Below, piece after piece: positions 13,587 through 38,410 of a stretch of 64,000 nucleotides of DNA; position 1 is the stretch's first letter, and every line of letters starts with the position of its first letter. The translations under genes were made by a program, and so were the position numbers. The stretch comes from Patescibacteria group bacterium (GTDB taxonomy: Bacteria; Patescibacteriota; Patescibacteriia; Magasanikbacterales; GWA2-37-8). Location of the stretch: positions 1-64,000 of the forward strand of contig SCQK01000004.1 of NCBI GenBank assembly GCA_004321885.1. Reading direction: 5' to 3'. A model generated the notes under the pieces. It did not search any database, was not told where the DNA came from, and saw only the letters and a list, made by a program, of their open reading frames with translations.

Positions 13587-16500
13587 ATGCCCATCAAACG
13601 AGTTCAAAAAGGACGACTAAAACCACCTGTCATTGCGAGACCTGAAAGAGGCCGCCTGCCCGCCTCTGGCGGGAAGCAATCCCCCGCGATTAAGAGAGGG
13701 ATCGCCGCGTCGCCCCGACGTAACGTCAGGGCTCCTCGCAATGACAAAGTGAAACCCGACACGAGCGGCGGTTACAGCGCCAAAAACATCACGGTGCTGG
13801 AAGGCTTGGAGGCCGTGCGCCGGCGGCCCGGCATGTATATCGGTTCCACGGGCACGACGGGCCTGCATCATCTGGTTTGGGAAGTGGTGGACAACTCCAT
13901 TGACGAAGCCATGGCCGGACATTGCGACCAAATTGACATCGCCTTGCTCCCCGGCCACCTGGTGGAAGTGCGCGACAACGGCCGCGGCATTCCGGTTGAC
14001 ATTCACCCCCAGCAAAAAGTCAGCGCCCTGGAAGTGGTACTCACCAAACTGCACGCCGGCGGTAAATTCGGCGACGGCGGCTATAAGGTCTCGGGCGGCC
14101 TCCACGGCGTGGGCGTGTCTGTGGTCAATGCTTTGTCGTCGTACGTAAAAGCCGAAGTGCATCGCGACGGAAAAATTTGGCTGCAAGAATACAAAAACGG
14201 CGGCCAGCCGGTAAAAAAAGTGCGGGCCATTGGCCCGGCCAAAGACACAGGCACGACCATTACTTTTTTACCCGACGCGAGCGTTTTTGAAACATTGGAT
14301 TTTGACTGGAAGACAATCGTGGACCATATCCGCCAACAGGCCTATCTAAACAAGGGCGTGCTTATTTCCGTTTCCGACCGGCGCCAGGGCGAGGAAAAAA
14401 CCAAAGACGGAACGGCTCTCCCTTATCCCAATCCCTCATATCAATTTTATTTTGAAGGCGGCATTGCTTCTTATGTGCGCCACCTGAATCAAAACAAAGA
14501 ACTGAAAAACGAAACTATTTTTTACGTTGATAAAGAGACCGATGGCGTGCGCGTGGAAACCGCTTTGCAATACACCGACGAATACACCGAATCGCTGTTC
14601 GCCTTTACCAACAACATCCACAATCCCGAAGGCGGCACGCATGTGGCTGGTTTTCGCGCGGCTCTCACACGCGGCCTGAACACCTACGCGCGCAACAAAA
14701 ATATCCTGAAAGAAAAAGACGCGAACCTGACCGGCGAGGACGCGCGCGAGGGCTTGAACTGCGTGATTTCGGTAAAGGTGCGCGAGCCCCAGTTTGAAGG
14801 TCAGACTAAAGCCAAACTGGGAAACACCGAGGTCAAGACCGCGGTGGAATCGGTGTTTGGCGACGCGTTTTTAATTTATTTGGAAGAGCACCCGCGGGAC
14901 GCCGAGGCCATCGTGGGCAAGTGTATCTTGGCGTCCAAAGCGCGCAACGCGGCCAAAATTGCGCGCGACGCCATCCTGCGCAAGGGCGCGCTGGAAGGCT
15001 TTACTTTGCCGGGCAAGCTGGCAGATTGCTCCAGCCGTCACGCCGAAGAGAGCGAATTGTTTTTGGTGGAAGGCGACAGTGCCGGTGGCTGTTTTTTTGG
15101 CTCAACTAAGCTAAAATTAGCCGACGGTCGCAGTTTATCTTTCAAAGAATTGGTGGAGGAAAACAAACAAGAAAAGAAAAACTATTGCTATACAATAAAA
15201 GAGGACGGCGATATTGGCATTGAACTGATAAAAAATCCACGAATGACGAAAACAGGCGCGGAAGTGATAAAAGTTATATTAGATAATGACGAGGAAATTA
15301 TTTGTACTCCGGACCACAAGTTTATGTTAAGGAACGGAGAATACAAGGTGGCACAAAATCTGACTCCCTGCGATTCATTAATGCCTCTATATAGGAAAAT
15401 ATCTGAAAAGAGTGGCAGAATCACAATTGAAGGATATGAAATGACCTTTAACCCGAAAGATGCAAGATGGATTTTCACTCATCTACTGGCAGATGATTAT
15501 AATTTACGAAACGGGGTGTACCCCGATGATAGAGGCACCAACAAGCATCATGTTGATTTTAATAAGTTAAATAATAACCCAGATAATATAGTAAGGATGA
15601 CTCACGAAGATCATATGGCTTATCATGCCATGATGCTTCAATTTGGTTTGCACAGAGCGGATGTAAAAGAAAAATCCAAAAAAGCTCACCAATCCGAGGG
15701 GTTTAAAGAAAAAATGAGCAGAATCATGAGTACTCCGGAAATGAAACAAATGTTAAGCCGCAGAGCGAAAAAGCAATGGGAGAACGAGGAATATAAAAAG
15801 TTCATGACGCAAAAATTCTTGGAATTTTACAATTCTAATGAGGAATACAAAAAAAAGAATAATGATTTTCTTAATAAGGCGCAGGAAGAATATTGGGCTG
15901 ACAAAGCCAACAGGAAAAAACAAGCCGAAAGAGTCACTGCGCATTTCAAGGAACATCCCGAAAGAAAAAAATGGCTTAGGGATTTCGCGAAACGGGAATG
16001 GACAGACAAAAATCTGCTTAAATGGCGAGCCGGGAAAACCAAGGAGCAATGGACTGACGAGTTTAGAAGGAAACGAAAAGAAGCATATGACAAGGTCTAC
16101 TTGACCAGCAGTCTGGCTTTCGCCAAAAAGCTTCTTGAATCCAAAGAAGATATGCTGAAAAAATATGACACTGCGCGAATTAATCTTCCGAAAAAAAATA
16201 CCAACCTGTTGAGCTTGAGGACTTTAATTGACAGATTTTTCAACGGCCAAAAACAAAACTTCCTTGAGGCGGTGGCGAATTATAACCATAAAATAATAAG
16301 AATTGAAAAAGTTGCCGAAAAAATGGACGTATATGATATTGAAGTGCCGCACACGCACAACTTTGCATTGGCCAGCGGCGTGTTCGTGCACAATAGCGCA
16401 AAATCCGGACGCGATCGCGAACACCAGGCCATACTCCCCTTGCGCGGCAAGGTGCTGAACGTGGAGCGCGCGCGCTTGGACAAAATCATCGGCAACAACG

Positions 16501-17117
16501 AATTAAAATCGCTGATTATCGCCCTGGGCACGAACATCGGCGAACAATTTGACATCTCCAAATTGCGCTACCACCGCATCGTTATTATGACCGACGCGGA
16601 CGTAGACGGCGCCCACATCCGCACTTTGCTTCTCACTTTTTTCTATCGCCACTTCCAGGACCTGATAACCGGCGGGCACATTTACATCGCCCAGCCGCCT
16701 TTATACAGCGTAAAATACGGCAAAGAAATGAAATACGCTTTTAACGACGAAGAAAAAGAAAAAATCTTGAAAGAATTACAGGGCAAGGGCAAGACGGCCA
16801 AGATTTCCTCCCCTGCCCGAGGGGAGGATGAAGGAGGGGCGGGAACGGAAGCTGAGAGCGGCGAAGAAGAAGCACAGTCATTGGTGGTGGGCGGGGTAAA
16901 GGTGAACATCCAGCGCTACAAAGGTTTAGGTGAAATGAACCCCGAACAGTTGTGGGAAACCACCATGAATCCTGAGAACCGAATAATGAAGCAAGTAACC
17001 GCGGAAAACGCGGAAGCGGCCAACCAAATGTTTGAGGTTTTGATGGGAGACGAGGTGGAGCCGCGCAAAAAATTCATCCAGACCCACGCCAAGCAGGTGC
17101 AGAATTTGGACGTGTAA
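13587..17117 (+). CDS. gyrB: DNA gyrase subunit B, interrupted by an intein
   Basis: Motifs LEGLEAVRRRPGMYIGS, HHLVWEVVDNSIDEA, EGDSAGG / SAKSGRDR flanking the intein, PLRGKVLNVE and QRYKGLGEMNPEQLWETTM. The first 54 codons run through a P-family palindrome, and GTG 13749 gives a normal-length N-terminus (MKPDTSGGYSAKNITVLEGL). The start is therefore uncertain. Confidence 0.95.
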   Translation: MPIKRVQKGRLKPPVIARPERGRLPASGGKQSPAIKRGIAASPRRNVRAPRNDKVKPDTSGGYSAKNITVLEGLEAVRRRPGMYIGSTGTTGLHHLVWEVVDNSIDEAMAGHCDQIDIALLPGHLVEVRDNGRGIPVDIHPQQKVSALEVVLTKLHAGGKFGDGGYKVSGGLHGVGVSVVNALSSYVKAEVHRDGKIWLQEYKNGGQPVKKVRAIGPAKDTGTTITFLPDASVFETLDFDWKTIVDHIRQQAYLNKGVLISVSDRRQGEEKTKDGTALPYPNPSYQFYFEGGIASYVRHLNQNKELKNETIFYVDKETDGVRVETALQYTDEYTESLFAFTNNIHNPEGGTHVAGFRAALTRGLNTYARNKNILKEKDANLTGEDAREGLNCVISVKVREPQFEGQTKAKLGNTEVKTAVESVFGDAFLIYLEEHPRDAEAIVGKCILASKARNAAKIARDAILRKGALEGFTLPGKLADCSSRHAEESELFLVEGDSAGGCFFGSTKLKLADGRSLSFKELVEENKQEKKNYCYTIKEDGDIGIELIKNPRMTKTGAEVIKVILDNDEEIICTPDHKFMLRNGEYKVAQNLTPCDSLMPLYRKISEKSGRITIEGYEMTFNPKDARWIFTHLLADDYNLRNGVYPDDRGTNKHHVDFNKLNNNPDNIVRMTHEDHMAYHAMMLQFGLHRADVKEKSKKAHQSEGFKEKMSRIMSTPEMKQMLSRRAKKQWENEEYKKFMTQKFLEFYNSNEEYKKKNNDFLNKAQEEYWADKANRKKQAERVTAHFKEHPERKKWLRDFAKREWTDKNLLKWRAGKTKEQWTDEFRRKRKEAYDKVYLTSSLAFAKKLLESKEDMLKKYDTARINLPKKNTNLLSLRTLIDRFFNGQKQNFLEAVANYNHKIIRIEKVAEKMDVYDIEVPHTHNFALASGVFVHNSAKSGRDREHQAILPLRGKVLNVERARLDKIIGNNELKSLIIALGTNIGEQFDISKLRYHRIVIMTDADVDGAHIRTLLLTFFYRHFQDLITGGHIYIAQPPLYSVKYGKEMKYAFNDEEKEKILKELQGKGKTAKISSPARGEDEGGAGTEAESGEEEAQSLVVGGVKVNIQRYKGLGEMNPEQLWETTMNPENRIMKQVTAENAEAANQMFEVLMGDEVEPRKKFIQTHAKQVQNLDV
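13629..13745. repeat. P-family palindrome, copy 2 (in gyrB leader or N-terminal extension)
   Basis: GTCATTGCGAG at 13629 and CTCGCAATGAC ending at 13745, with inner GAAGCAATC. Confidence 0.8.
15090..16394 (+). mobile_element. GyrB intein (435 codons) with HNH homing-endonuclease motif and Lys/Glu-rich repeats
   Basis: Inserted between GDSAGG and SAKSGRDR.
- Starts with Cys (CFFGSTKLKLADG).
- Block B TPDH (ICTPDHKFML).
- Ends VFVHN followed by Ser.
- HNH-like HHVDFNKLNNNPDNIVRMTHEDHMAYH.
- Then repeated K/E-rich units (KAHQSEGFKEKMS, RRAKKQWENEEYKKFM, EYKKKNNDFLNKAQEEYW) resembling NUMOD-type DNA-binding repeats.
- Visibly more AT-rich than the exteins. Confidence 0.85.
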
Positions 17118-17415: not shown

Positions 17416-17453
17416 ACCCCTCTCTGTCTCTCCCCTTATAAAGGGGAGAGGAA
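17416..17453. repeat. S-family hairpin (CCTCCCC-TTATAA-GGGGAGG type), intergenic example
   Basis: ACCCCTCTCTGTCTCTCCCCTTATAAAGGGGAGAGGAATC between secE and nusG. Confidence 0.8.
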
Positions 17454-17458
17454 TCAAT

Positions 17459-18004
17459 ATGGCTAAACAAACACTAAATCTGGGACGCCGCTGGTATGTC
17501 CTGCACACCTACAGCGGTTACGAAGAAAACGTCAAGAGCAACCTATTGCAAAGGGTGGAATCGTTCGCCATGAGCGACAAAATTTTCAACGTGCTGGTGC
17601 CCAAAGAGAAAAAAATAAAAATCAAAAACGGCCGACGCAGTACCGTGGATGAAAAAATCTTTCCGGGCTATGTGCTGGTGGAAATGGTTGTAACCGACGA
17701 TTCGTGGTATGTGGTGCGCAACACCCCGAACGTGACCGGCTTCGTGGGCTCGGGCACGACCCCCACTCCGGTTGACCAGTCCGAAGTTGATTCTTTGCTC
17801 AAACGGATGTCGGCCGCCGAACCCCAGCACAAAATTGATTTGGAAGTGAACGAACCGGTGCGAATTACTGACGGGCCGTTCAAAAATTTTGAAGGCAAAA
17901 TCAGCAACATAGACGGCGAGCGCGGCAAGGTGAAAGTTCTAATAACCATGTTCGGCCGCGAAACGCCCGTGGAGCTGGACGTGATGCAAGTAAAGAAAAT
18001 TTAA
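17459..18004 (+). CDS. nusG: transcription termination/antitermination factor NusG
   Basis: RWYVLHTYSGYEENVKSNL, FPGYVLVEM, and the KOW region GPFKNFEGKISNIDGERGKVKVLITMFGRETPVEL. Confidence 0.95.
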   Translation: MAKQTLNLGRRWYVLHTYSGYEENVKSNLLQRVESFAMSDKIFNVLVPKEKKIKIKNGRRSTVDEKIFPGYVLVEMVVTDDSWYVVRNTPNVTGFVGSGTTPTPVDQSEVDSLLKRMSAAEPQHKIDLEVNEPVRITDGPFKNFEGKISNIDGERGKVKVLITMFGRETPVELDVMQVKKI

Positions 18005-18013
18005 TTTATATAT

Positions 18014-18436
18014 ATGGCTAAAAAATTAATGACGCAAATCAAATTGCAAATACCGGGCGGAGCGGCCAATCCCGCGCCTCCGATTGGCCCGGCTTTGGGC
18101 CAGCACGGGGTAAACATCCAGGGGTTCTGTAAAGAATTCAACGACAAAACCAAAGACAAACACGGTGAAGTAGTACCGGTGGTAATTTCTGTTTACGAAG
18201 ACCGCAGTTTCACCTTTATCATGAAAACCCCGCCGGTGCCCGAACTGATAAAAAAAGCGGCCGGCATTGCCAAGGGCTCGGCCAAACCCCTGCAGGAAAA
18301 AGTGGGCAAAATCACCAAAGCGCAGGTGCGCGAAATCGCTCAAAAGAAAATGCCCGACCTGAACGCCAACGACGTGGAAGCCGCCATGAGAATGGTGGAA
18401 GGCACGGCCAAGCAGATGGGCGTGACGGTGGAATAA
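18014..18436 (+). CDS. rplK: 50S ribosomal protein L11
   Basis: [36 protein letters not shown] terminator hairpin GCGGCT-TGATT-GAGCCGC plus T run follows at about 18455-18488. Confidence 0.95.
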
Positions 18437-18537
18437 AAAATAATGAAAAGCAGCAAATAAAAGGCGGCTTGATTGAGCCGCTTTTTATTGTTTTACAATT
18501 ACTGTATAATAGATGCCGCCTCATTCGTCTTAACAAT

Positions 18538-19107
18538 ATGCGGACAGAGCAAGACAAAATTATCGACGCCGAGCTGGCGGCTAAAGCGGCCGGCGGCGAC
18601 CAAAACGCGTTCGTCATTCTTTATGATAAATACGCCGGGGCTATTTTCAGGCATATTATTTTTCGCGGAGGCGACAAGGCCGTTGCCGAAGACATCGCCA
18701 GCCAAACCTTCATGCGCTTTTGGGATTGGTTGCGGGAAAACAAACCCGTAAAATCCTGCAAGGCGCTTCTCTACCGCATCGCCGGCAATCTTTTTATTGA
18801 CTTGACCAGAACAAAAGAATACAAAAATTTATCGCTTGAAGACATGAGCGAAAACAAAGGCGCCCAGCCCGCGGCTAAAGAAAATATCGCCATTGATTTG
18901 GAAAAGAAAGAAGAAATTACTGCCCTGAAAAACGCGCTGAACAAACTGCCGGAACTTTACAAACAAATACTCACTATGCGCTATCTGGACGAACTCTCGG
19001 TGGCGGAAATCGCCAAAGCCACCGGTAAGAAAAGCGGGGCCATATACGTCTCTATCTATAGAGGCATCAAAGCCCTGCGGCAGGCCATGGTCGAGGCCAA
19101 GCGCTAA
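18538..19107 (+). CDS. RNA polymerase sigma-70 family factor (ECF-like)
   Basis: Region 2 (AFVILYDKYAGAIFRHIIFRGGDKAVAEDIASQTFMRFW) and region 4 (LPELYKQILTMRYLDELSVAEIAKATGKKSGAIYVSIYRGIKALR). Start placed at ATG 18538. Confidence 0.85.
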   Translation: MRTEQDKIIDAELAAKAAGGDQNAFVILYDKYAGAIFRHIIFRGGDKAVAEDIASQTFMRFWDWLRENKPVKSCKALLYRIAGNLFIDLTRTKEYKNLSLEDMSENKGAQPAAKENIAIDLEKKEEITALKNALNKLPELYKQILTMRYLDELSVAEIAKATGKKSGAIYVSIYRGIKALRQAMVEAKR

Positions 19108-19128
19108 ACAACAAATAAATCCAAGTAT

Positions 19129-19815
19129 ATGGAAAAAATAAAATTCAGCGCAATTAAAAAACTGTTTCAATCGGCGCGCTCTTTGCCTGTAGGCGGAACG
19201 GACTTGAATAAAGGCAAAGAAAAAGCGCTCAATTACATGCGCGCGCATCCGATTGAAGCAAAGGCGCGTTCGCAAGGCTTTGGCCCAATATTATTCCCTC
19301 TTAATTTTAAGCATATGGTTTCTATTATTATCATAGTGGCCCTGCTCTTCGGGGGCGGAGGCGCGGTGGTGGCTTCGCAAAACGACATGCCGGGCGATAT
19401 TCTATACCCGGTAAAATTACTCAGTGAAAATGTGCGCGAGGCCCTGACTTTTTCTGTAAAAAGCCAAGCCAAACTGGACGCTGAATTGGCCAACGAGAGA
19501 GCCGAAGAATTAAAATACGTGACGGTTGAAAAAAAAGCCAAAGAGCTTGTGGCCGAGACGGCTGAGCGATTACAGGAACAACTGGAGGAACTGCAAGATG
19601 ATTTGGATGAACTTTCCGCGGCCGATAGGGCAAATATTATGTTGCAAACCTCACCTCTCATCGCCAGCACCAGCGTGCAAACGCAATTAAAAATAGAGTT
19701 GGAAGACGATGACGAGATTGAAAAAGAGGATGACGAAATTGAAGTCAAAGCCGGCGTGAAGCTTAAAGTGGAAACAGAGATAGAAAACGAAGTGGAAACA
19801 GAGATAGAAAACTAG
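19129..19815 (+). CDS. putative anti-sigma / DUF5667-like membrane protein
   Basis: One TM segment (MVSIIIIVALLFGGGGAVVA), then PGDILYPVKLLSENVREALTF, which I associate with DUF5667. Acidic C-terminal repeats (VETEIENEVETEIEN). Adjacent to the sigma factor. Confidence 0.6.
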   Translation: MEKIKFSAIKKLFQSARSLPVGGTDLNKGKEKALNYMRAHPIEAKARSQGFGPILFPLNFKHMVSIIIIVALLFGGGGAVVASQNDMPGDILYPVKLLSENVREALTFSVKSQAKLDAELANERAEELKYVTVEKKAKELVAETAERLQEQLEELQDDLDELSAADRANIMLQTSPLIASTSVQTQLKIELEDDDEIEKEDDEIEVKAGVKLKVETEIENEVETEIEN

Positions 19816-19840
19816 ATTAAAATAGATTAAAAATCCGGAT

Positions 19841-19870
19841 AAAAAAGACAGCCGCAAGGTCGTCTTTTTT
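19841..19870. terminator. bidirectional rho-independent terminator
   Basis: A run, then hairpin GACAGCC-GCAA-GGTCGTC, then T run. It serves the plus-strand anti-sigma gene and the minus-strand tRNA-like gene. Confidence 0.65.
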
Positions 19871-19872
19871 AG

Positions 19873-19946
19873 TGGTGGAGCGAGGGGGAGTTGAACCCCA
19901 AAAGCTAACATGGCAATGGTAGCTGCAGACCGTCTGCGCTCGCCCC
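19873..19946 (-). tRNA. tRNA-like gene with alanine-type acceptor (G3:U70, A73, encoded CCA) and an aberrant anticodon arm
   Basis: Minus-strand sequence: GGGGCGA GC GCAG-ACGGT-CTGC A GCTAC-CATTGCCAT-G(T)TAGC TTTT GGGG-TTCAACT-CCCC C TCGCTCC ACCA. Acceptor, D and T arms fold. The anticodon region gives only a 9-12 nt loop, which contains TGC (Ala) and GCC (Gly) triplets. Confidence 0.5.
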
Positions 19947-19991
19947 TGTTCCACCGAGCAATAGTATATCACAAACGCAAAACGGAGCATA

Positions 19992-20062
19992 TCAAAAGAG
20001 CTCCCTTACGGGAGCTCCGGGGTTCTGTAGACGGTATTCTACAACTAACCTTGCCATGTTAA
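19992..20062 (-). ncRNA. anti-tRNA small RNA 3
   Basis: Minus-strand promoter: TTGACA (plus 20089-20094), 16-nt spacer, TATAGT (plus 20067-20072). AACATGGCAA (plus 20051-20060) is the exact reverse complement of the tRNA-like anticodon region (plus 19907-19916). AGACGGT/ACCGTCT pair between 20029-20035 and 19929-19935. Terminator GGAGCTCCC-GTAA-GGGAGCTC plus TTTTG. Confidence 0.55.
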
Positions 20063-20232
20063 AAACACTATAACATATCCACAAAAATTGTCAATATTTT
20101 ATCCACAAGCTAAACTATTGACTGGGGGTTGACATTTATGTATACTTATGATAAAGTTTTTTGCTCTTTGAGTCACGCCGGAGTGAAATCCGGAGTACGT
20201 TGTTCCACTTCAAACTCGCAGCGGAGGCAGAA

Positions 20233-20655
20233 ATGTATTTGTATCGGAACGAGAACAACGACGCGCCGCGCTACAACCCGTCGTTTCCCGTCTTCACGAA
20301 GGAGATGACGGCCGACCTGTCGCAGGCGAGCGCCACGATGCTCGCCGCGTACTTCAACGACGTCGCGAGCCGGGACGGCGGTGAGAGCTTCGTGTACGAC
20401 CTCGCCGAGCGGCTGGCGGCCGACATGCCGCTCGCGACGCTCCTCGCCGCGGCCCACCTCTGCCGGCTCTCGTCGGCCGAGTTCATCTCGCACATCCTCT
20501 GCGCGTGCGGGAAGAACGGCCGCGCCCTGGAGTGCGCGCGAGCAGTGGCCGAGGCCTCGCTCGCGGTGTTCCGCGAGCACAGCGAAAAACGCCGCGCGCG
20601 GCGGCTGGCTGTGGCGTGCTACACGCACCGGCTCTACCGCGCGGCCCGAGCCTGA
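20233..20655 (+). CDS. hypothetical protein encoded by a strongly GC-rich foreign segment
   Basis: Promoter: TTGACA 20129-20134, 17-nt spacer, TAAAGT 20152-20157. GGAGG at 20223-20227 lies 5 nt before ATG 20233. 140 codons, of which roughly nine in ten end in G or C by manual reading. This singles out this frame among the overlapping ORFs. No recognisable motif. Confidence 0.65.
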   Translation: MYLYRNENNDAPRYNPSFPVFTKEMTADLSQASATMLAAYFNDVASRDGGESFVYDLAERLAADMPLATLLAAAHLCRLSSAEFISHILCACGKNGRALECARAVAEASLAVFREHSEKRRARRLAVACYTHRLYRAARA

Positions 20656-20825
20656 CGCTCTTTCCCTCTCCCCGCTCTTTCCCGCCATATTCTGCTTCGC
20701 CACATCGGCGGCGCAGACCAACCTACGAGCCCCGAGTCACTGACCCGGGCGCTTCTGTTTTAGAGGGATCCTTCCCCCCGACTGAGTCGGGGGTCAGGAT
20801 GACATGGTCGCTGCAGGCGACCATG

Positions 20826-22025
20826 TCACTTTAGCAACATCGCGTCGCCGAAACTGTAAAATCTATACTTGGCTTCAATCGCTTTTTTATAACAATCCAA
20901 AGTGAATTTAATTGCTTGACGACTGGCGACCGGAGATCCTGAAACAAGTTCAGGATGACAATCGGCGATGAAAGCGGATACCAGCATCAGCAGGGTTGAC
21001 TGGGGCAGATGAAAATTGGTAATCAGCGCGTCTATTATTTGAAACTTGAAACCCGGGGTGATAAAAAGATTAACGTCGCCGGTGTATGGCCTGACCGCGC
21101 CGCTTGCGGCGATCCCTTCCAACGCGCGCACGGTGGTTGTGCCCACGGCCACCACTCGCCTGCCCTCGCGCTTGGCCGCGTTTATTAGGTCGGCATTTTT
21201 GGCCGAGAGCTCCACCCACTCGCCGTGCATTTTGTGTTCTTCCACTTTTTTTGTTTTCACCGGCACAAAAGTGCCCATCCCCACGTGCAATGTTACTTCG
21301 GCAAACTCCACGCCCTTGTTTTTTAATTGTTCAATCAACTCTGGCGTGAAATGAAATCCGGCCGTGGGCGCGGCCACCGAACCCTCGTGCTTGGCGTACA
21401 CGGTTTGGTATTGTTCGGGCGTGGCTGACGCTCCGATGTATGGCGGGGTCGGCACCTCGCCGTACTTGTTCGCCTTCTCGCGCACCACTAAATCATCATC
21501 GCCAAATTGCGCCAAAAAAGTCCCGTTATTTTCTTTAAGCAAAATTTCGCAGGCGAAGTCCTCGGCAAAAACCACTTTCATGCCCAGCCGCAATTTCCTG
21601 CCCGGCTTAGCCAGTACCCGCCAGACGCCTTTGTTTTCCATGGGACGGACCAAAAATATCTCCACCGGCGGGGCGTTCAAAATCACGCCAGTGCTGTCAT
21701 TGTGAGGAGTTCCGAGTACTCGGGACGACGAAGCAATCCCATTCGTAACTGCAAGGGATTGCTTCATTCCACTTCGTTCCATTCGCAATGACAATCGCGT
21801 GTCCAGCATCGCCCGTCCGCGCAAACGCGCCTTAAAAACTTTTGTGTTATTCCACACCACCAAATCGCCGGCGCCCAAATAGTGAACAATATCATAAAAA
21901 TGCCGGTGCGTAATGGTCCGGCTTTTTTTATCCACCACCATCAAACGCGACCAATCGCGCCGTTCTGCGGGGAATTGAGTTATCAATTCCTTTGGAAGCG
22001 CGTAATCAAAAAGAGAGGTTTCCAT
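20826..22025 (-). CDS. queA: S-adenosylmethionine:tRNA ribosyltransferase-isomerase
   Basis: METSLFDYALPKELITQFPAERRDWSRLMVV, GEVPTPPYI, VAAPTAGFHFT and GTTTVRALE. Two in-frame repeat-derived insertions: RLSLRMERSGMKQSLAVTNGIASSSRVLGTPHNDS and CHPELVSGSPVASRQ. Confidence 0.9.
   Translation of the reverse strand: METSLFDYALPKELITQFPAERRDWSRLMVVDKKSRTITHRHFYDIVHYLGAGDLVVWNNTKVFKARLRGRAMLDTRLSLRMERSGMKQSLAVTNGIASSSRVLGTPHNDSTGVILNAPPVEIFLVRPMENKGVWRVLAKPGRKLRLGMKVVFAEDFACEILLKENNGTFLAQFGDDDLVVREKANKYGEVPTPPYIGASATPEQYQTVYAKHEGSVAAPTAGFHFTPELIEQLKNKGVEFAEVTLHVGMGTFVPVKTKKVEEHKMHGEWVELSAKNADLINAAKREGRRVVAVGTTTVRALEGIAASGAVRPYTGDVNLFITPGFKFQIIDALITNFHLPQSTLLMLVSAFIADCHPELVSGSPVASRQAIKFTLDCYKKAIEAKYRFYSFGDAMLLK
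21696..21792. repeat. P-family palindrome, copy 3 (in frame inside queA)
   Basis: GTCATTGTGAGG...GAAGCAATCC...GGATTGCTTC...TTCGCAATGAC. Confidence 0.8.
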
Positions 22026-22040
22026 TTTTGAAAAAATACT

Positions 22041-22152
22041 AATTCCCAATTTCCAATGACCAATTTCCAATCAAGCACCAAACCACAATTACCAATTTGG
22101 ACATTGGGATTTAGGATTTGTTTGGTCATTGAAAATTGATAATTGGAAATTT
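22041..22152. repeat. Q-family AT-rich palindrome, copy 2
   Basis: AATTCCCAATTTCCAATGACCAATTTCCAAT ... ATTTGGACATTGGGATTTAGGATTTG ... GGTCATTGAAAATTGATAATTGGAAAT, between mltG and queA. Confidence 0.8.
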
Positions 22153-22201
22153 TTAAAGCAAGCTATTTGATGTGTAACCACCAATCCCAAAAAAACTATC
22201 T

Positions 22202-23053
22202 TCATTTGAGATATTTAAACTTATTATGATTATGCTCCTCCAACGTGCGCGCGAAGCGGGCGCGGCCTTCCTTGTCCGTCAAAAAAAACCAGTAATCATT
22301 GGCCCGCGGATTGATGGCCGCGCGCAGAGAGCTAAACCCGGGGTTGCTGATGGGCCCGGGCGGCAGGCCCGGATACTTGTACGTGTTCCACGGCGAATCA
22401 TAGTCGCGCTCTTTGGCCGTGGTAAAAACATCGCCCGTGCGCGCCACCGCGTAATGCACCGAGGAGTCCACCTGCAAGGCCCAATTTTTCTTGTAGCGCC
22501 TCCACAATATATCAGCCACCATTGCCCTGTCCTCGTCAAACTTCACTTCTTTTTCCAAAATACTGGCCATGATAAGGGCCTGAAAAAAATTCCTGTTCTC
22601 GTTGATTATCTCCGCGCGCGTTTCAGAGGTAATTTTTTCCTCCAAATTGGCAAAAACTTTTTTTAGCAAATCTTCCAGCCTGGCGTCTTTGTACACGCGA
22701 TAAGTGTCGGGAAAAAAATATCCCTCATACGACACGCCATCGGGCTTACCAGAAAGCAAAGGAAAAATTTCAGCGCCGCTGTCGTCCCTAAAATTCAACA
22801 CCGGCGCGCTTTTGCCAAAGGCCGCGTAATTATAGGCCGGCTGGCCCAGCTTGCCGTAAAATTCATCATCATTTTTCACTATGTTATTTTTCACCAGCAT
22901 CTCCGCCACCTGCCGCAAATTCCAGCCCGGAATTATGGTGATATTTATTTCCTCTCTGGGAATAATCGGCGCGGGTTTGGGCCTGGCCGATTTTTTTATT
23001 AAAAAAAATACAGCGACTCCGATGATTATTACGACAAGCAAAATTTTTTTCAT
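22202..23053 (-). CDS. mltG: endolytic murein transglycosylase MltG (YceG-like)
   Basis: N-terminal TM segment, SYEGYFFPDTYRV and ASILEKEV motifs. Start ATG 23053 overlaps the upstream stop by 4 nt. Confidence 0.85.
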   Translation of the reverse strand: MKKILLVVIIIGVAVFFLIKKSARPKPAPIIPREEINITIIPGWNLRQVAEMLVKNNIVKNDDEFYGKLGQPAYNYAAFGKSAPVLNFRDDSGAEIFPLLSGKPDGVSYEGYFFPDTYRVYKDARLEDLLKKVFANLEEKITSETRAEIINENRNFFQALIMASILEKEVKFDEDRAMVADILWRRYKKNWALQVDSSVHYAVARTGDVFTTAKERDYDSPWNTYKYPGLPPGPISNPGFSSLRAAINPRANDYWFFLTDKEGRARFARTLEEHNHNKFKYLK

Positions 23054-23745
23054 AACGGCATAAACAATCTCTCCGCGAGCCGGTACTTCTCCAAAGTATC
23101 GGTCGGAAACCACTGTTCCTTGTGATGATAGGCATAAACCATTCCCTGCCCGGCCAGCGCCTCAAAACACTGCCTCTCTATGGATGAAACCCCGTCCGGC
23201 AAAATGTCCAGGGCTTTCTTGCGGAGCACAAACGCGCCCGCGTTTATCAAATTGCCCGGCGCTTCTTCTTTTTTGGGCTTTTCCACGAAACCGATAATTT
23301 TATCGCCCTCCAGCAAAGCCACGCCAAAATGTTCCACGTCTTCTCTGGGGGTAAGGGTCATGGTGATGAGACCTGGGTTAGCCGCGTGGACTTTGACCAG
23401 TTCCGTAATATCAACATTCATCAAATTGTCCCCCCAAATTAGAACAAATTCATCGGCCAAATTTTGCGCCGCCTGTTTTACCGCGCCGCCCGTGCCCAGG
23501 GGTTCGCTTTCCACCGAGTACGTCAAATTCGCGCCCAACGCGGCGCCGTCCTTAAAATATTCCCTGATTTTATCCGCGTGATAACTGACGGCCAAAGTAA
23601 TGTCTTTGATGCCATGCGCCAGTAAATTTTCAATCGCGTACTGCATAGTGGGCCTGCCTCGCACCGGAAGCAGCGGCTTGGGAGTATTGTCCGTAAGCGG
23701 CCGCAGGCGCGTGCCCAGCCCCCCGACTAAAATTATCGCTTGCAT
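23050..23745 (-). CDS. sugar-phosphate nucleotidyltransferase
   Basis: MQAIILVGGLGTRLRPLTDNTPKPLLPV, an NTP_transferase signature. 231 aa. Confidence 0.85.
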   Translation of the reverse strand: MQAIILVGGLGTRLRPLTDNTPKPLLPVRGRPTMQYAIENLLAHGIKDITLAVSYHADKIREYFKDGAALGANLTYSVESEPLGTGGAVKQAAQNLADEFVLIWGDNLMNVDITELVKVHAANPGLITMTLTPREDVEHFGVALLEGDKIIGFVEKPKKEEAPGNLINAGAFVLRKKALDILPDGVSSIERQCFEALAGQGMVYAYHHKEQWFPTDTLEKYRLAERLFMPL

Positions 23746-23837
23746 ATTGGTGTATTCTACCAGCTAATTCCGCGTTGCGCAAGATGCCGGTCTCTTGAAA
23801 AAAAACAGCTAAAATGGTATGATTCCCGCCGAAATAC

Positions 23838-23910
23838 GCGCCTGTAGCTCATCGGTTAGAGCAATTGCCTTATAAGCAATGGGCAGATGGTCCGACTCCA
23901 TCCAGGCGCA
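23838..23910 (+). tRNA. tRNA-Ile, anticodon UAU
   Basis: GCGCCTG TA GCTC-ATCGGTTA-GAGC A ATTGC-CTTATAA-GCAAT GGGCA GATGG-TCCGACT-CCATC CAGGCGC A. No encoded CCA. Upstream promoter TTGAAA, 17-nt spacer, TATGAT. Confidence 0.9.
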
Positions 23911-23923
23911 CGAATAATTGTAT

Positions 23924-24574
23924 ATGTTTTACAAAAACATCCCAAAACCCGGCGCTAATTTTAGAGCCAAGACCGGACTAAGCAGTTTTCAAAGAAGAAT
24001 AAAAAGCGCCGCCTTCTATAATTCCGCCAGTCCGCAGGCCGCGCTAAAACTTCATCCAAAAGCCGTTGACGCCCTCATCGGGCAGGTGGCCGCCAAAGAA
24101 AACGTCATCAGGCAAAACAAACTGACTTCCTATCACGTTACTAAAATGCGCGCGAACATTAAAAAAGCCGACCCTACCCTAACCAAAGTCAGCGAGGCGA
24201 TTATTCGTAAAACCCTCACCGGACTCACGGCCCAGGCCGCCAAAGAACAATCCCCGCAAGAAAAAAAGGCAATTATCGCGCGTAATCTGGCGCGGCGGCG
24301 CGAGGCTGATTCCGAACAGCAAAACCAAAACCAGCTTCGCCAGGGCACAATCAGCAGTATGAATAGGCGGTTTATAAAGGGTTCGGCCACTGCGCTCGGA
24401 AGACGTGGATACGAAACCACGCCGGACAAACTCGGTTCTCGCAACGCCACCTATGGCAGTATAGACGCCAAAGTAAAAGCCGCTCAATACGCCAAAAAAG
24501 AAGTCAAGGGTTCGGCGATTGGGCCGGTAAAGCCCTCGGCCAAACGACCGCCTCTCATGGATTTAGCGATTTAG
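23924..24574 (+). CDS. hypothetical basic protein
   Basis: ORF of about 216 aa, rich in K/R/Q, with no motif recognised. First ATG at 23924. Confidence 0.55.
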   Translation: MFYKNIPKPGANFRAKTGLSSFQRRIKSAAFYNSASPQAALKLHPKAVDALIGQVAAKENVIRQNKLTSYHVTKMRANIKKADPTLTKVSEAIIRKTLTGLTAQAAKEQSPQEKKAIIARNLARRREADSEQQNQNQLRQGTISSMNRRFIKGSATALGRRGYETTPDKLGSRNATYGSIDAKVKAAQYAKKEVKGSAIGPVKPSAKRPPLMDLAI

Positions 24575-37949: not shown

Positions 37950-38410
37950 TTGTGGTTCATGGTTATAAGCCGAATTTTGTACCCCGACGTTACGTCGGGG
38001 CGATGTTCATTTCTCTGGTCTTGACATTGCTGTCAAAATCTTAGCGAGCGAACTTTTTATCCCGACTAAGTCGGGACTCTGCTCTTGCGCCAGACAGGGC
38101 TTGGCACTCTTCGACGTTGCCGCCGAAGGGAGTATGGTAGCTTTGGTCTCGAGAACCACAACTCCCATACACTTTTCACCTTTGACGAACCCCGACTAAG
38201 TCGGGGTGAACGTCCGCCTGTGGCGGACTCTCATGAATCGCTAGTATTGTCTCTGTGCCGCTTTCCCTACGCCGACGTTGCCGCCGACGTGGCGGGTGTT
38301 ACCCGTTGCCTTTTTCTTTACCGGCTAGTTCCGCTAAGGGCGGACAGACGGAAAGGGCGTTCGGACTTTCCTTCCCGACTAAGTCGGGACGAACATCTGC
38401 CACGAACTGA
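37950..38410 (-). ncRNA. rnpB: RNase P RNA (bacterial type A-like)
   Basis: Minus strand contains GGAAGGAAAGTCCGAACGCC (P4 5' strand), ACAGAGACAA, GGTGAAAAGT and ACAAAATTCGGCTTATAACC (P4 3' strand). P1 pairs GTTCGTGG (plus 38400-38407) with CCATGAAC (plus 37955-37962). Terminator ACAAACGCCCCCTTAACAGGGGCGTTTTTG follows. Ends are approximate. Confidence 0.8.

Follow-up and report, generated by a model that had tools for sequence, protein, structure and literature searches.

How did a short gene whose third codon positions are almost saturated with G and C come to lie between two core genes of a reduced bacterial genome of far lower GC content? The locus that raises this question lies in a 64,000-nucleotide stretch of contig SCQK01000004.1 (hereafter the window, to which all positions refer) from a member of Candidatus Magasanikbacteria (Patescibacteria; candidate phyla radiation, CPR). 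The element concerned is a high-GC segment at 20245–20765 (plus strand; ~520 bp, GC 0.69), comprising the body of an open reading frame (ORF) for a 140-aa protein (20233–20655, plus strand) and a 110-nt GC-rich 3′ flank, in the spacer between the convergent rplK (encoding ribosomal protein L11) and queA genes. We consider it probable that this segment was recently acquired from an organism or virus of ~70% GC and was inserted into the rplK-queA spacer of a Magasanikbacteria genome.

The composition of the segment departs sharply from its surroundings. In 200-nt windows, GC stands at 0.40–0.47 across 20000–20300, climbs to 0.705–0.74 across 20300–20700, and has returned to 0.46 by 20800; the abrupt jump described at about 20250–20760 in the first-pass annotation of this DNA is therefore borne out, with edges at approximately 20245 and 20765. 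In 300-nt windows, the segment is the GC maximum of the entire 64 kb (0.727, against a mean of 0.494 and a standard deviation of 0.061), and no region outside of it exceeds 0.67. The 3′ flank (20656–20765, plus strand) is GC- and pyrimidine-rich (GC 0.62, compared to 0.43 in host intergenic sequence), lacks codon periodicity, and contains two copies of the direct repeat CGCTCTTTCCC.

Codon positions provide the evidence that this is a gene, and one of foreign character. Read in the frame of the ATG at 20233, GC at the first, second, and third codon positions (GC1, GC2, and GC3) is 0.65, 0.51, and 0.92, respectively (chi-square p = 6.6 × 10⁻¹⁴ for the difference between positions), and GC3 reaches 0.94 when the first seven codons are left out. 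The 46 other long ORFs have a GC3 of 0.58 ± 0.08 with a maximum of 0.69, placing this ORF at z = 4.3, and 140-codon stretches of other genes peak at 0.77, in agreement with the near-saturation that had been claimed for this frame. The order GC3 > GC1 > GC2 starts at codon 5 (CGG, 20245) and continues exactly to the stop codon (20653–20655). Given that the periodicity begins and ends in this manner, the frame is a coding sequence shaped in a genome of ~70% GC.

The length of the frame, by comparison, carries no such information. Long ORFs in several frames and on both strands had been pointed out at this site, and they do exist (five of the six frames of the segment have at least 100 stop-free codons), but they are expected from the composition, as an equally long open run occurs in 22% of mononucleotide shuffles of the segment; it is the periodicity, and not ORF length, that constitutes coding evidence. 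A 182-aa ORF on the minus strand was rejected as the coding frame because its GC-saturated position would fall at codon position 1, while the minus-strand frame that shares its third positions with the plus frame is interrupted by stops and has no ORF longer than 74 aa. With both of these minus-strand frames being poor candidates, the plus frame is the coding one.

The predicted product (15.5 kDa, pI 8.7) corresponds to the NCBI record TAN34020.1 (locus tag EPN28_00730), in which the start is annotated at a TTG, codon 3 of our frame. Alanine, leucine, and arginine make up 41% of its residues. It contains five cysteines (residues 77, 90, 92, 101, and 129), not six as initially counted, as well as four histidines (residues 75, 87, 116, and 132). 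The 140 residues include no transmembrane segment, hydrophobic segment, or signal peptide, with a top 19-residue Kyte-Doolittle hydropathy of 1.29, and a single-sequence AlphaFold2 model displayed eight helices at a predicted local distance difference test score of 72 (80–89 at residues 20–100). The product would thus appear to be a soluble, basic, all-helical cytoplasmic protein, for which the binding of another macromolecule is likelier than an enzymatic role.

Searches with the 140-aa product covered about 15 billion proteins, plus family, structure, phage, plasmid, viral, genome, and metagenome collections. The sole match in a word-indexed search, which covered 5.8 billion clusters, was the protein's own record in its metagenome-assembled genome (MAG). 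An exhaustive phmmer (HMMER) search of 1.84 billion representatives returned that record and nine weak extra matches (E < 10⁻³), which we rejected as noise, being FG-GAP-like or TPR-like repeat proteins in which short stretches were matched many times. Pfam, applied to three frames, yielded no match, nor did NCBIfam, PADLOC, or PDB sequences with the product, consistent with the earlier statement that it bears no recognizable motif. There was likewise no match among the PHROGs (best E = 0.06) or by fold search of BFVD. Against phages and plasmids, tblastn and blastn gave only matches of E ~0.1 in Rhizobium and chance matches of 45–80 nt in Streptomyces and Halobaculum, and scans of viral, GTDB-genome, and JGI-metagenome contigs, along with the other contigs of the same sequencing run, did not recover the ORF. 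At the nucleotide level, Rfam at E ≤ 10 gave nothing but sub-threshold noise within the segment, and a non-coding RNA reading was set aside on this result. A literature search for the run accession gave no match.

The signals on both sides of the ORF are of the host type. A Shine-Dalgarno sequence (GGAGG, 20223–20227, plus strand), read from the sequence, lies 5 nt upstream of the ATG, and three overlapping sigma-70-like matches at 20088–20157 (plus strand) face the ORF (TTGTCA-17-TAAACT, TTGACT-17-TATACT, and TTGACA-17-TAAAGT), the last of these, at 20129–20157, being the best. By consensus matching, the region holds five sigma-70-like sites where 0.6 would be expected, and the promoter and ribosome-binding site noted upstream of the ATG in the first-pass annotation are both present in this sense. 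Downstream, host sequence resumes with a hairpin at 20768–20800, whose 16-nt arms enclose CCCGACTGAGTCGGG. The 15-mer palindrome CCCGACTNAGTCGGG (any central base) occurs ten times in the window (at 1775, 7757, 20777, 25940, 26360, 36380, 36473, 38061, 38191, and 38374) where none would be expected. Most copies lie just past gene ends, as judged by comparison with ORF and Rfam coordinates, and three are found inside the RNase P RNA (37950–38408) as extra hairpins. As this hairpin recurs across the genome, the copy at 20768–20800 belongs to the host and sets the end of the foreign DNA at ~20765. It is followed by a perfect 12-bp hairpin (20800–20828) that overlaps the queA stop codon on the minus strand.

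The spacer itself appears to be a permissive site. The right-hand neighbor, queA (20826–22070, minus strand), encoding S-adenosylmethionine:tRNA ribosyltransferase-isomerase, is conserved; its best QueA matches are Magasanikbacteria MAGs at 58–64% identity, and the NCBI record of the 140-aa product carries the label 'Patescibacteria group bacterium'. The intervals separating NusG-L11 from the QueA gene that faces it are only 55–880 bp long, with diverse content, in 22 related loci, while the gap in the window measures 2.4 kb and holds genes for an extracytoplasmic function (ECF) sigma factor (18469–19107, plus strand) and a DUF5667 membrane protein (19129–19815, plus strand), both of host-like composition, in addition to the degenerate tRNA-like cassette and the ORF of high GC. 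Given this range of lengths and contents, the spacer between these convergent core genes is variable and tolerant of insertions. In none of 40 Magasanikbacteria loci inspected did the ECF sigma factor/DUF5667 pair lie beside queA. The ORF is similarly absent at the syntenic site, with no tblastn match in any of 80 loci, the nearest relatives among them being distant (QueA ≤64%). The core genes nearby include gyrB, nusG, rplK, queA, yceG, a nucleotidyl transferase gene, a pseudouridine synthase gene, gmk, rplS, and uvrA.

Other occupants of the same gap were noted in related genomes. Four relatives (loci L007, L012, L018, and L022) carry a conserved helical gene of ~160 aa, whose product looks similar to the 140-aa protein by eye; homology between the two was rejected, as hhalign returned a probability of 0.1%. 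In another Magasanikbacteria MAG (locus L015), the queA-rplK gap contains an insert at 7119–7902 with a GC of 0.55–0.63, compared to 0.44 for the locus, that includes a 185-aa ORF unrelated to that of the window and with an N-terminus that is lipoprotein-like by eye.

For the acquisition, we propose the following course of events. DNA bearing one intact gene (20233–20655) would have entered the variable spacer between rplK and queA, presumably through the uptake of DNA and its illegitimate or microhomology-based recombination, without a dedicated integrase, or alternatively by way of a mobile element that was lost afterwards. DNA-uptake machinery is common in CPR cells. The join would fall within the first few codons, such that codons 1–4 and the upstream signals may be host-derived, and the gene would thereafter have stood behind the host-type sigma-70 matches and GGAGG, ahead of the host's recurrent hairpin. 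The first-pass annotation proposed a fusion of local expression signals to an imported coding body, citing a run of about seven AT-rich codons at the start. Of these, only codons 1–4 (ATG TAT TTG TAT) deviate from the GC-rich codon usage that follows, and codons 5–7 (CGG AAC GAG) already end in G or C; the onset of periodicity at codon 5 fits such a fusion, although a native AT-rich 5′ end of the gene is an equally good reading.

The transfer would be evolutionarily recent, given a near-saturated GC3 in a host that otherwise averages 0.58; the amelioration reasoning reportedly due to Lawrence and Ochman is the basis for reading recency from GC3 that has not ameliorated. With 140 codons and no homolog, the donor is narrowed no further than 'high GC', whether organism or virus. 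The actinobacterial or host origin suggested in the first-pass annotation gained no support from the searches, nor do they speak against it. The idea of a recent horizontal acquisition, as first put forward, is thus supported by the foreign composition, the genuine reading frame, the variable site, and the lack of homologs, while the donor was not found. The first-pass annotation also named widespread homologs in related CPR genomes as a finding that would speak against import, and our searches returned no homologs at all.

Several points weigh against this interpretation. None of the collections searched yielded a donor or homolog, though after a recent transfer one might expect the sample itself to contain the donor lineage. 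No genome is closely enough related (QueA identities stop at 64%) to reveal an unoccupied site, and the neighboring DUF5667 protein led to no closer ones, having no match at E ≤ 10⁻¹⁰ beyond its own MAG record. Finally, the right junction (20729–20932) is present in no independent contig that we retrieved and comes from the MAG assembly alone.

Among the alternatives, the one that survives best, though we consider it unlikely, is that the segment is the leftover cargo of a decayed or excised mobile element, such as a prophage 'moron', a small island targeted to the tRNA-like gene, or an integron-type cassette, of which one promoter-ORF unit remains. The layout is indeed moron-like (own promoter, small ORF, and hairpin) with a deviating GC, orphan ORFs are typical cargo of phages and cassettes, and next to the segment lie a tRNA-like gene and, inverted, a partial copy of that gene. 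Furthermore, this genome does receive genes of mobile type, as is evident from a Bro-N domain gene (4358–5227) and DUF3800 protein genes (749–1324 and 10158–10814, both minus strand) elsewhere in the window. However, Pfam scans of the large ORFs across 0.7–32 kb of the window detected no integrase or transposase domain and revealed core genes instead, in line with the lack of an integrase remarked upon earlier. No integrase, transposase, or phage gene was present among the large ORFs scanned for at least 10 kb on either side, the neighbors being gyrB, nusG, rplK, queA, and yceG. The best PHROG E-value (0.06) and the lack of a BFVD fold match give no phage affiliation either, and all inverted repeats on the downstream side are hairpins that belong to the host, hence no attC-like site.

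The degenerate tRNA-like gene beside the segment (19873–19946, minus strand) has a G3:U70 pair and an anticodon loop of 6 nt (UUGCCA), and its CCA end is encoded. It was missed by ARAGORN at default settings and by Rfam at the gathering score, and was reported as tRNA-?(Ala|Gly) by ARAGORN at -ps80. Rfam scored it below threshold as both transfer-messenger RNA (tmRNA; 15 bits) and Tymo_tRNA-like (22 bits). A tmRNA reading was rejected, given 15 bits against a gathering score of 47 and a prediction by ARAGORN only at the 60% threshold with an implausible tag. The upstream half of the cassette (19997–20094, minus strand) consists of a sigma-70-like promoter match (TTGACA-16-TATAGT, 20094–20067), a leader (20061–20038) antisense to the 5′ half of the tRNA-like gene, and a T-run hairpin (20018–19997), all on the minus strand.

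This design occurs three times in the window, at 3903–4131 (plus strand), ~7400–7587 (plus strand), and 20110–19870 (minus strand), serving tRNA-Arg(GCG) and tRNA-Arg(CCG) (genes at 4058 and 7514) and the degenerate tRNA-like gene, respectively. Each cassette comprises, in order, a promoter, a leader of ~45 nt, a hairpin with a T-run, an extended −10 element (TGTGnTATAnT), a CGGTGGA motif with complementarity to the CCA-bearing 3′ terminus, and the tRNA; the promoter motif TTGTGGATAAAA-N-TTGACA is found upstream of the first and third. The leader is the reverse complement of the 5′ half (D and anticodon arms) of its own tRNA, and in folds of the single transcript it pairs with the tRNA in all three cassettes (z = −4.2 to −6.0). 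The tRNA-Ile and tRNA-Leu genes lack the design, and we know of no described equivalent of such self-antisense tRNA cassettes.

Since the same design is seen at two tRNA-Arg genes, the tRNA-like cassette is host-native and does not look like an attachment site. The inverted half-copy, which might have been taken as a trace of integration, belongs to the cassette design, which recurs at both tRNA-Arg genes. It is also the only copy of the tRNA-like 5′ half found, no tRNA 3′ end is repeated directly at the flanks of the segment, and the ORF adjoins the cassette where its promoter is, not at its 3′ end. The suggestion that its location beside a tRNA-like gene fits island integration is therefore not supported. 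As a separate observation, all three cassettes are positioned head-to-head with compositionally unusual genes (two LamG genes and the GC-rich ORF), and it may be the self-antisense cassettes, more than the ORF, that make this region unusual.

A narrower version of the acquisition, in which the gene was taken directly from a high-GC organism hosting the Magasanikbacteria cell and was kept as an interaction or regulatory factor, strikes us as quite improbable. If true, the codon signature would be the first hint, at the level of sequence, as to which hosts this CPR lineage can use. More generally, a donor, if found, would show the DNA-exchange partners of an uncultured episymbiont-type cell and might indicate its host.

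It is also improbable that the segment is an assembly artefact, in which the assembler fused a short stretch of a high-GC organism from this metagenome into the contig of the CPR bacterium. A misassembly is excluded for the left junction only. A Logan contig of 3308 bp (run SRR8426592) matches window positions 17421–20728 at 100% and spans the left junction and the entire ORF without a branch, joining 2.8 kb of host sequence to 480 nt of GC-rich sequence, so that a second assembler reproduces this junction independently. On the right, the contig ends at 20728 and the next one retrieved restarts at 20933 (20933–23982), leaving that junction to the MAG assembly. Moreover, the gene is seen in one sample only, and no homolog links it to CPR bacteria. 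However, the 204 nt between the two contigs contain palindromic host repeats, on which the gap falls, and an artefact would require two chimeric joins ~520 bp apart, both within a single spacer between genes that are syntenic in relatives. The ORF is also in frame with an ATG preceded at 5 nt by GGAGG, and it is carried by no other contig of the run or of any dataset, leaving no source genome visible.

Least credible of all is a native origin, as an element whose GC richness is of use at the DNA or RNA level (for example a structured non-coding RNA) or a native gene of unusual composition, for while long open frames are expected from composition alone and the protein has no homolog, the third-position periodicity begins and ends with the ORF and is not explicable by amino-acid content, no other gene in the window comes near a GC3 of 0.92, no Rfam family appears at E < 1 inside the segment, and nothing comparable occupies the site in the 22 relatives.

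The remainder of the window contains further features of note. Three paralogous secreted LamG (Laminin_G_3) proteins of ~700 aa are encoded on the minus strand at 1811–3889, 5309–~7380, and 7791–9989; their genes have a flat codon-position GC (GC1 = GC2 = GC3 = about 0.45–0.49), unlike other host genes. The first two are each head-to-head with a tRNA-Arg cassette, in what looks like a duplicated unit, and the long ORF call at 5309–7651 overruns the tRNA at 7514. DnaA-box-like 9-mers (TTATCCACA) are positioned directly beside the −35 elements of divergent promoters, with perfect copies at 3904, 13376, and 20099 and copies with one mismatch at 7356 and 20075; allowing up to one mismatch, there are 27 matches in the window compared to 11 expected. 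We rejected an origin of replication as their explanation, as they are scattered singly at promoters and not clustered, and they may instead represent a regulator site.

The gyrB gene (13587–17117, plus strand) holds an intein (Intein_splicing domain, residues 511–936). A DUF3800-II RNA motif is present at 61251–61314 (plus strand; 67 bits, above the gathering score). The lowest GC of the window, 0.28–0.31 in 300-nt windows, is found at 62200–62650, where an ORF (61882–62751, minus strand) has a GC3 of 0.30 and may be a second gene of foreign composition, deviating in the other direction.

If the segment is indeed an import, it is a clean, well-bounded, and very recent one into a reduced CPR genome without visible mobility machinery. 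For now, the orphan gene is useful more as a marker and a lead than as a discovery in itself, the event being of an ordinary kind.

In comparison with known systems, the locus shares features with several. As with integron cassettes and CALIN arrays (clusters of attC sites lacking integron-integrases), a small orphan ORF of foreign composition lies beside a promoter; unlike these, there is no intI and, although no formal attC model was run, no attC-like site, the downstream repeats being the host CCCGACTNAGTCGGG hairpin and that at the queA stop codon. A tRNA-targeted genomic island would differ in having a tyrosine or serine integrase at one end, whereas no integrase domain was found among the large ORFs of the 0.7–32 kb region, and a flanking direct repeat of the tRNA 3′ end.

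The product itself invites comparison with WhiB-like proteins and zinc-binding anti-sigma (ZAS) domains, which are small cysteine-containing regulators from high-GC bacteria and the phages of these, given that it is small, basic, and helical, has several cysteines and histidines and high-GC codons, and is encoded beside an ECF sigma/anti-sigma pair. WhiB proteins have the spacing C-xn-C-x2-C-x5-C, and ZAS proteins the motif H-x3-C-x2-C. The cysteines and histidines of the ORF product follow neither, the cysteines being spaced C-x12-C-x-C-x8-C with an H-x2-C-x-C element, and neither Pfam nor NCBIfam gave a match. In layout, the locus resembles the prophage morons of Hendrix and colleagues, as both are autonomous promoter-ORF-hairpin units of odd GC situated between two genes. 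However, the surroundings here are nusG, rplK, an ECF sigma factor gene, queA, and yceG rather than a prophage, and no PHROG or viral fold was matched.

The last comparison is with horizontally acquired atypical genes (Lawrence & Ochman). The segment differs from these in showing no donor lineage, mobility gene, or flanking repeat, in residing in a reduced CPR recipient, and in consisting of a single gene of ~520 bp rather than an island. Like them, it is small and of unassigned function, is absent from the corresponding site in relatives, and has an overall and codon-position GC far removed from that of its host.

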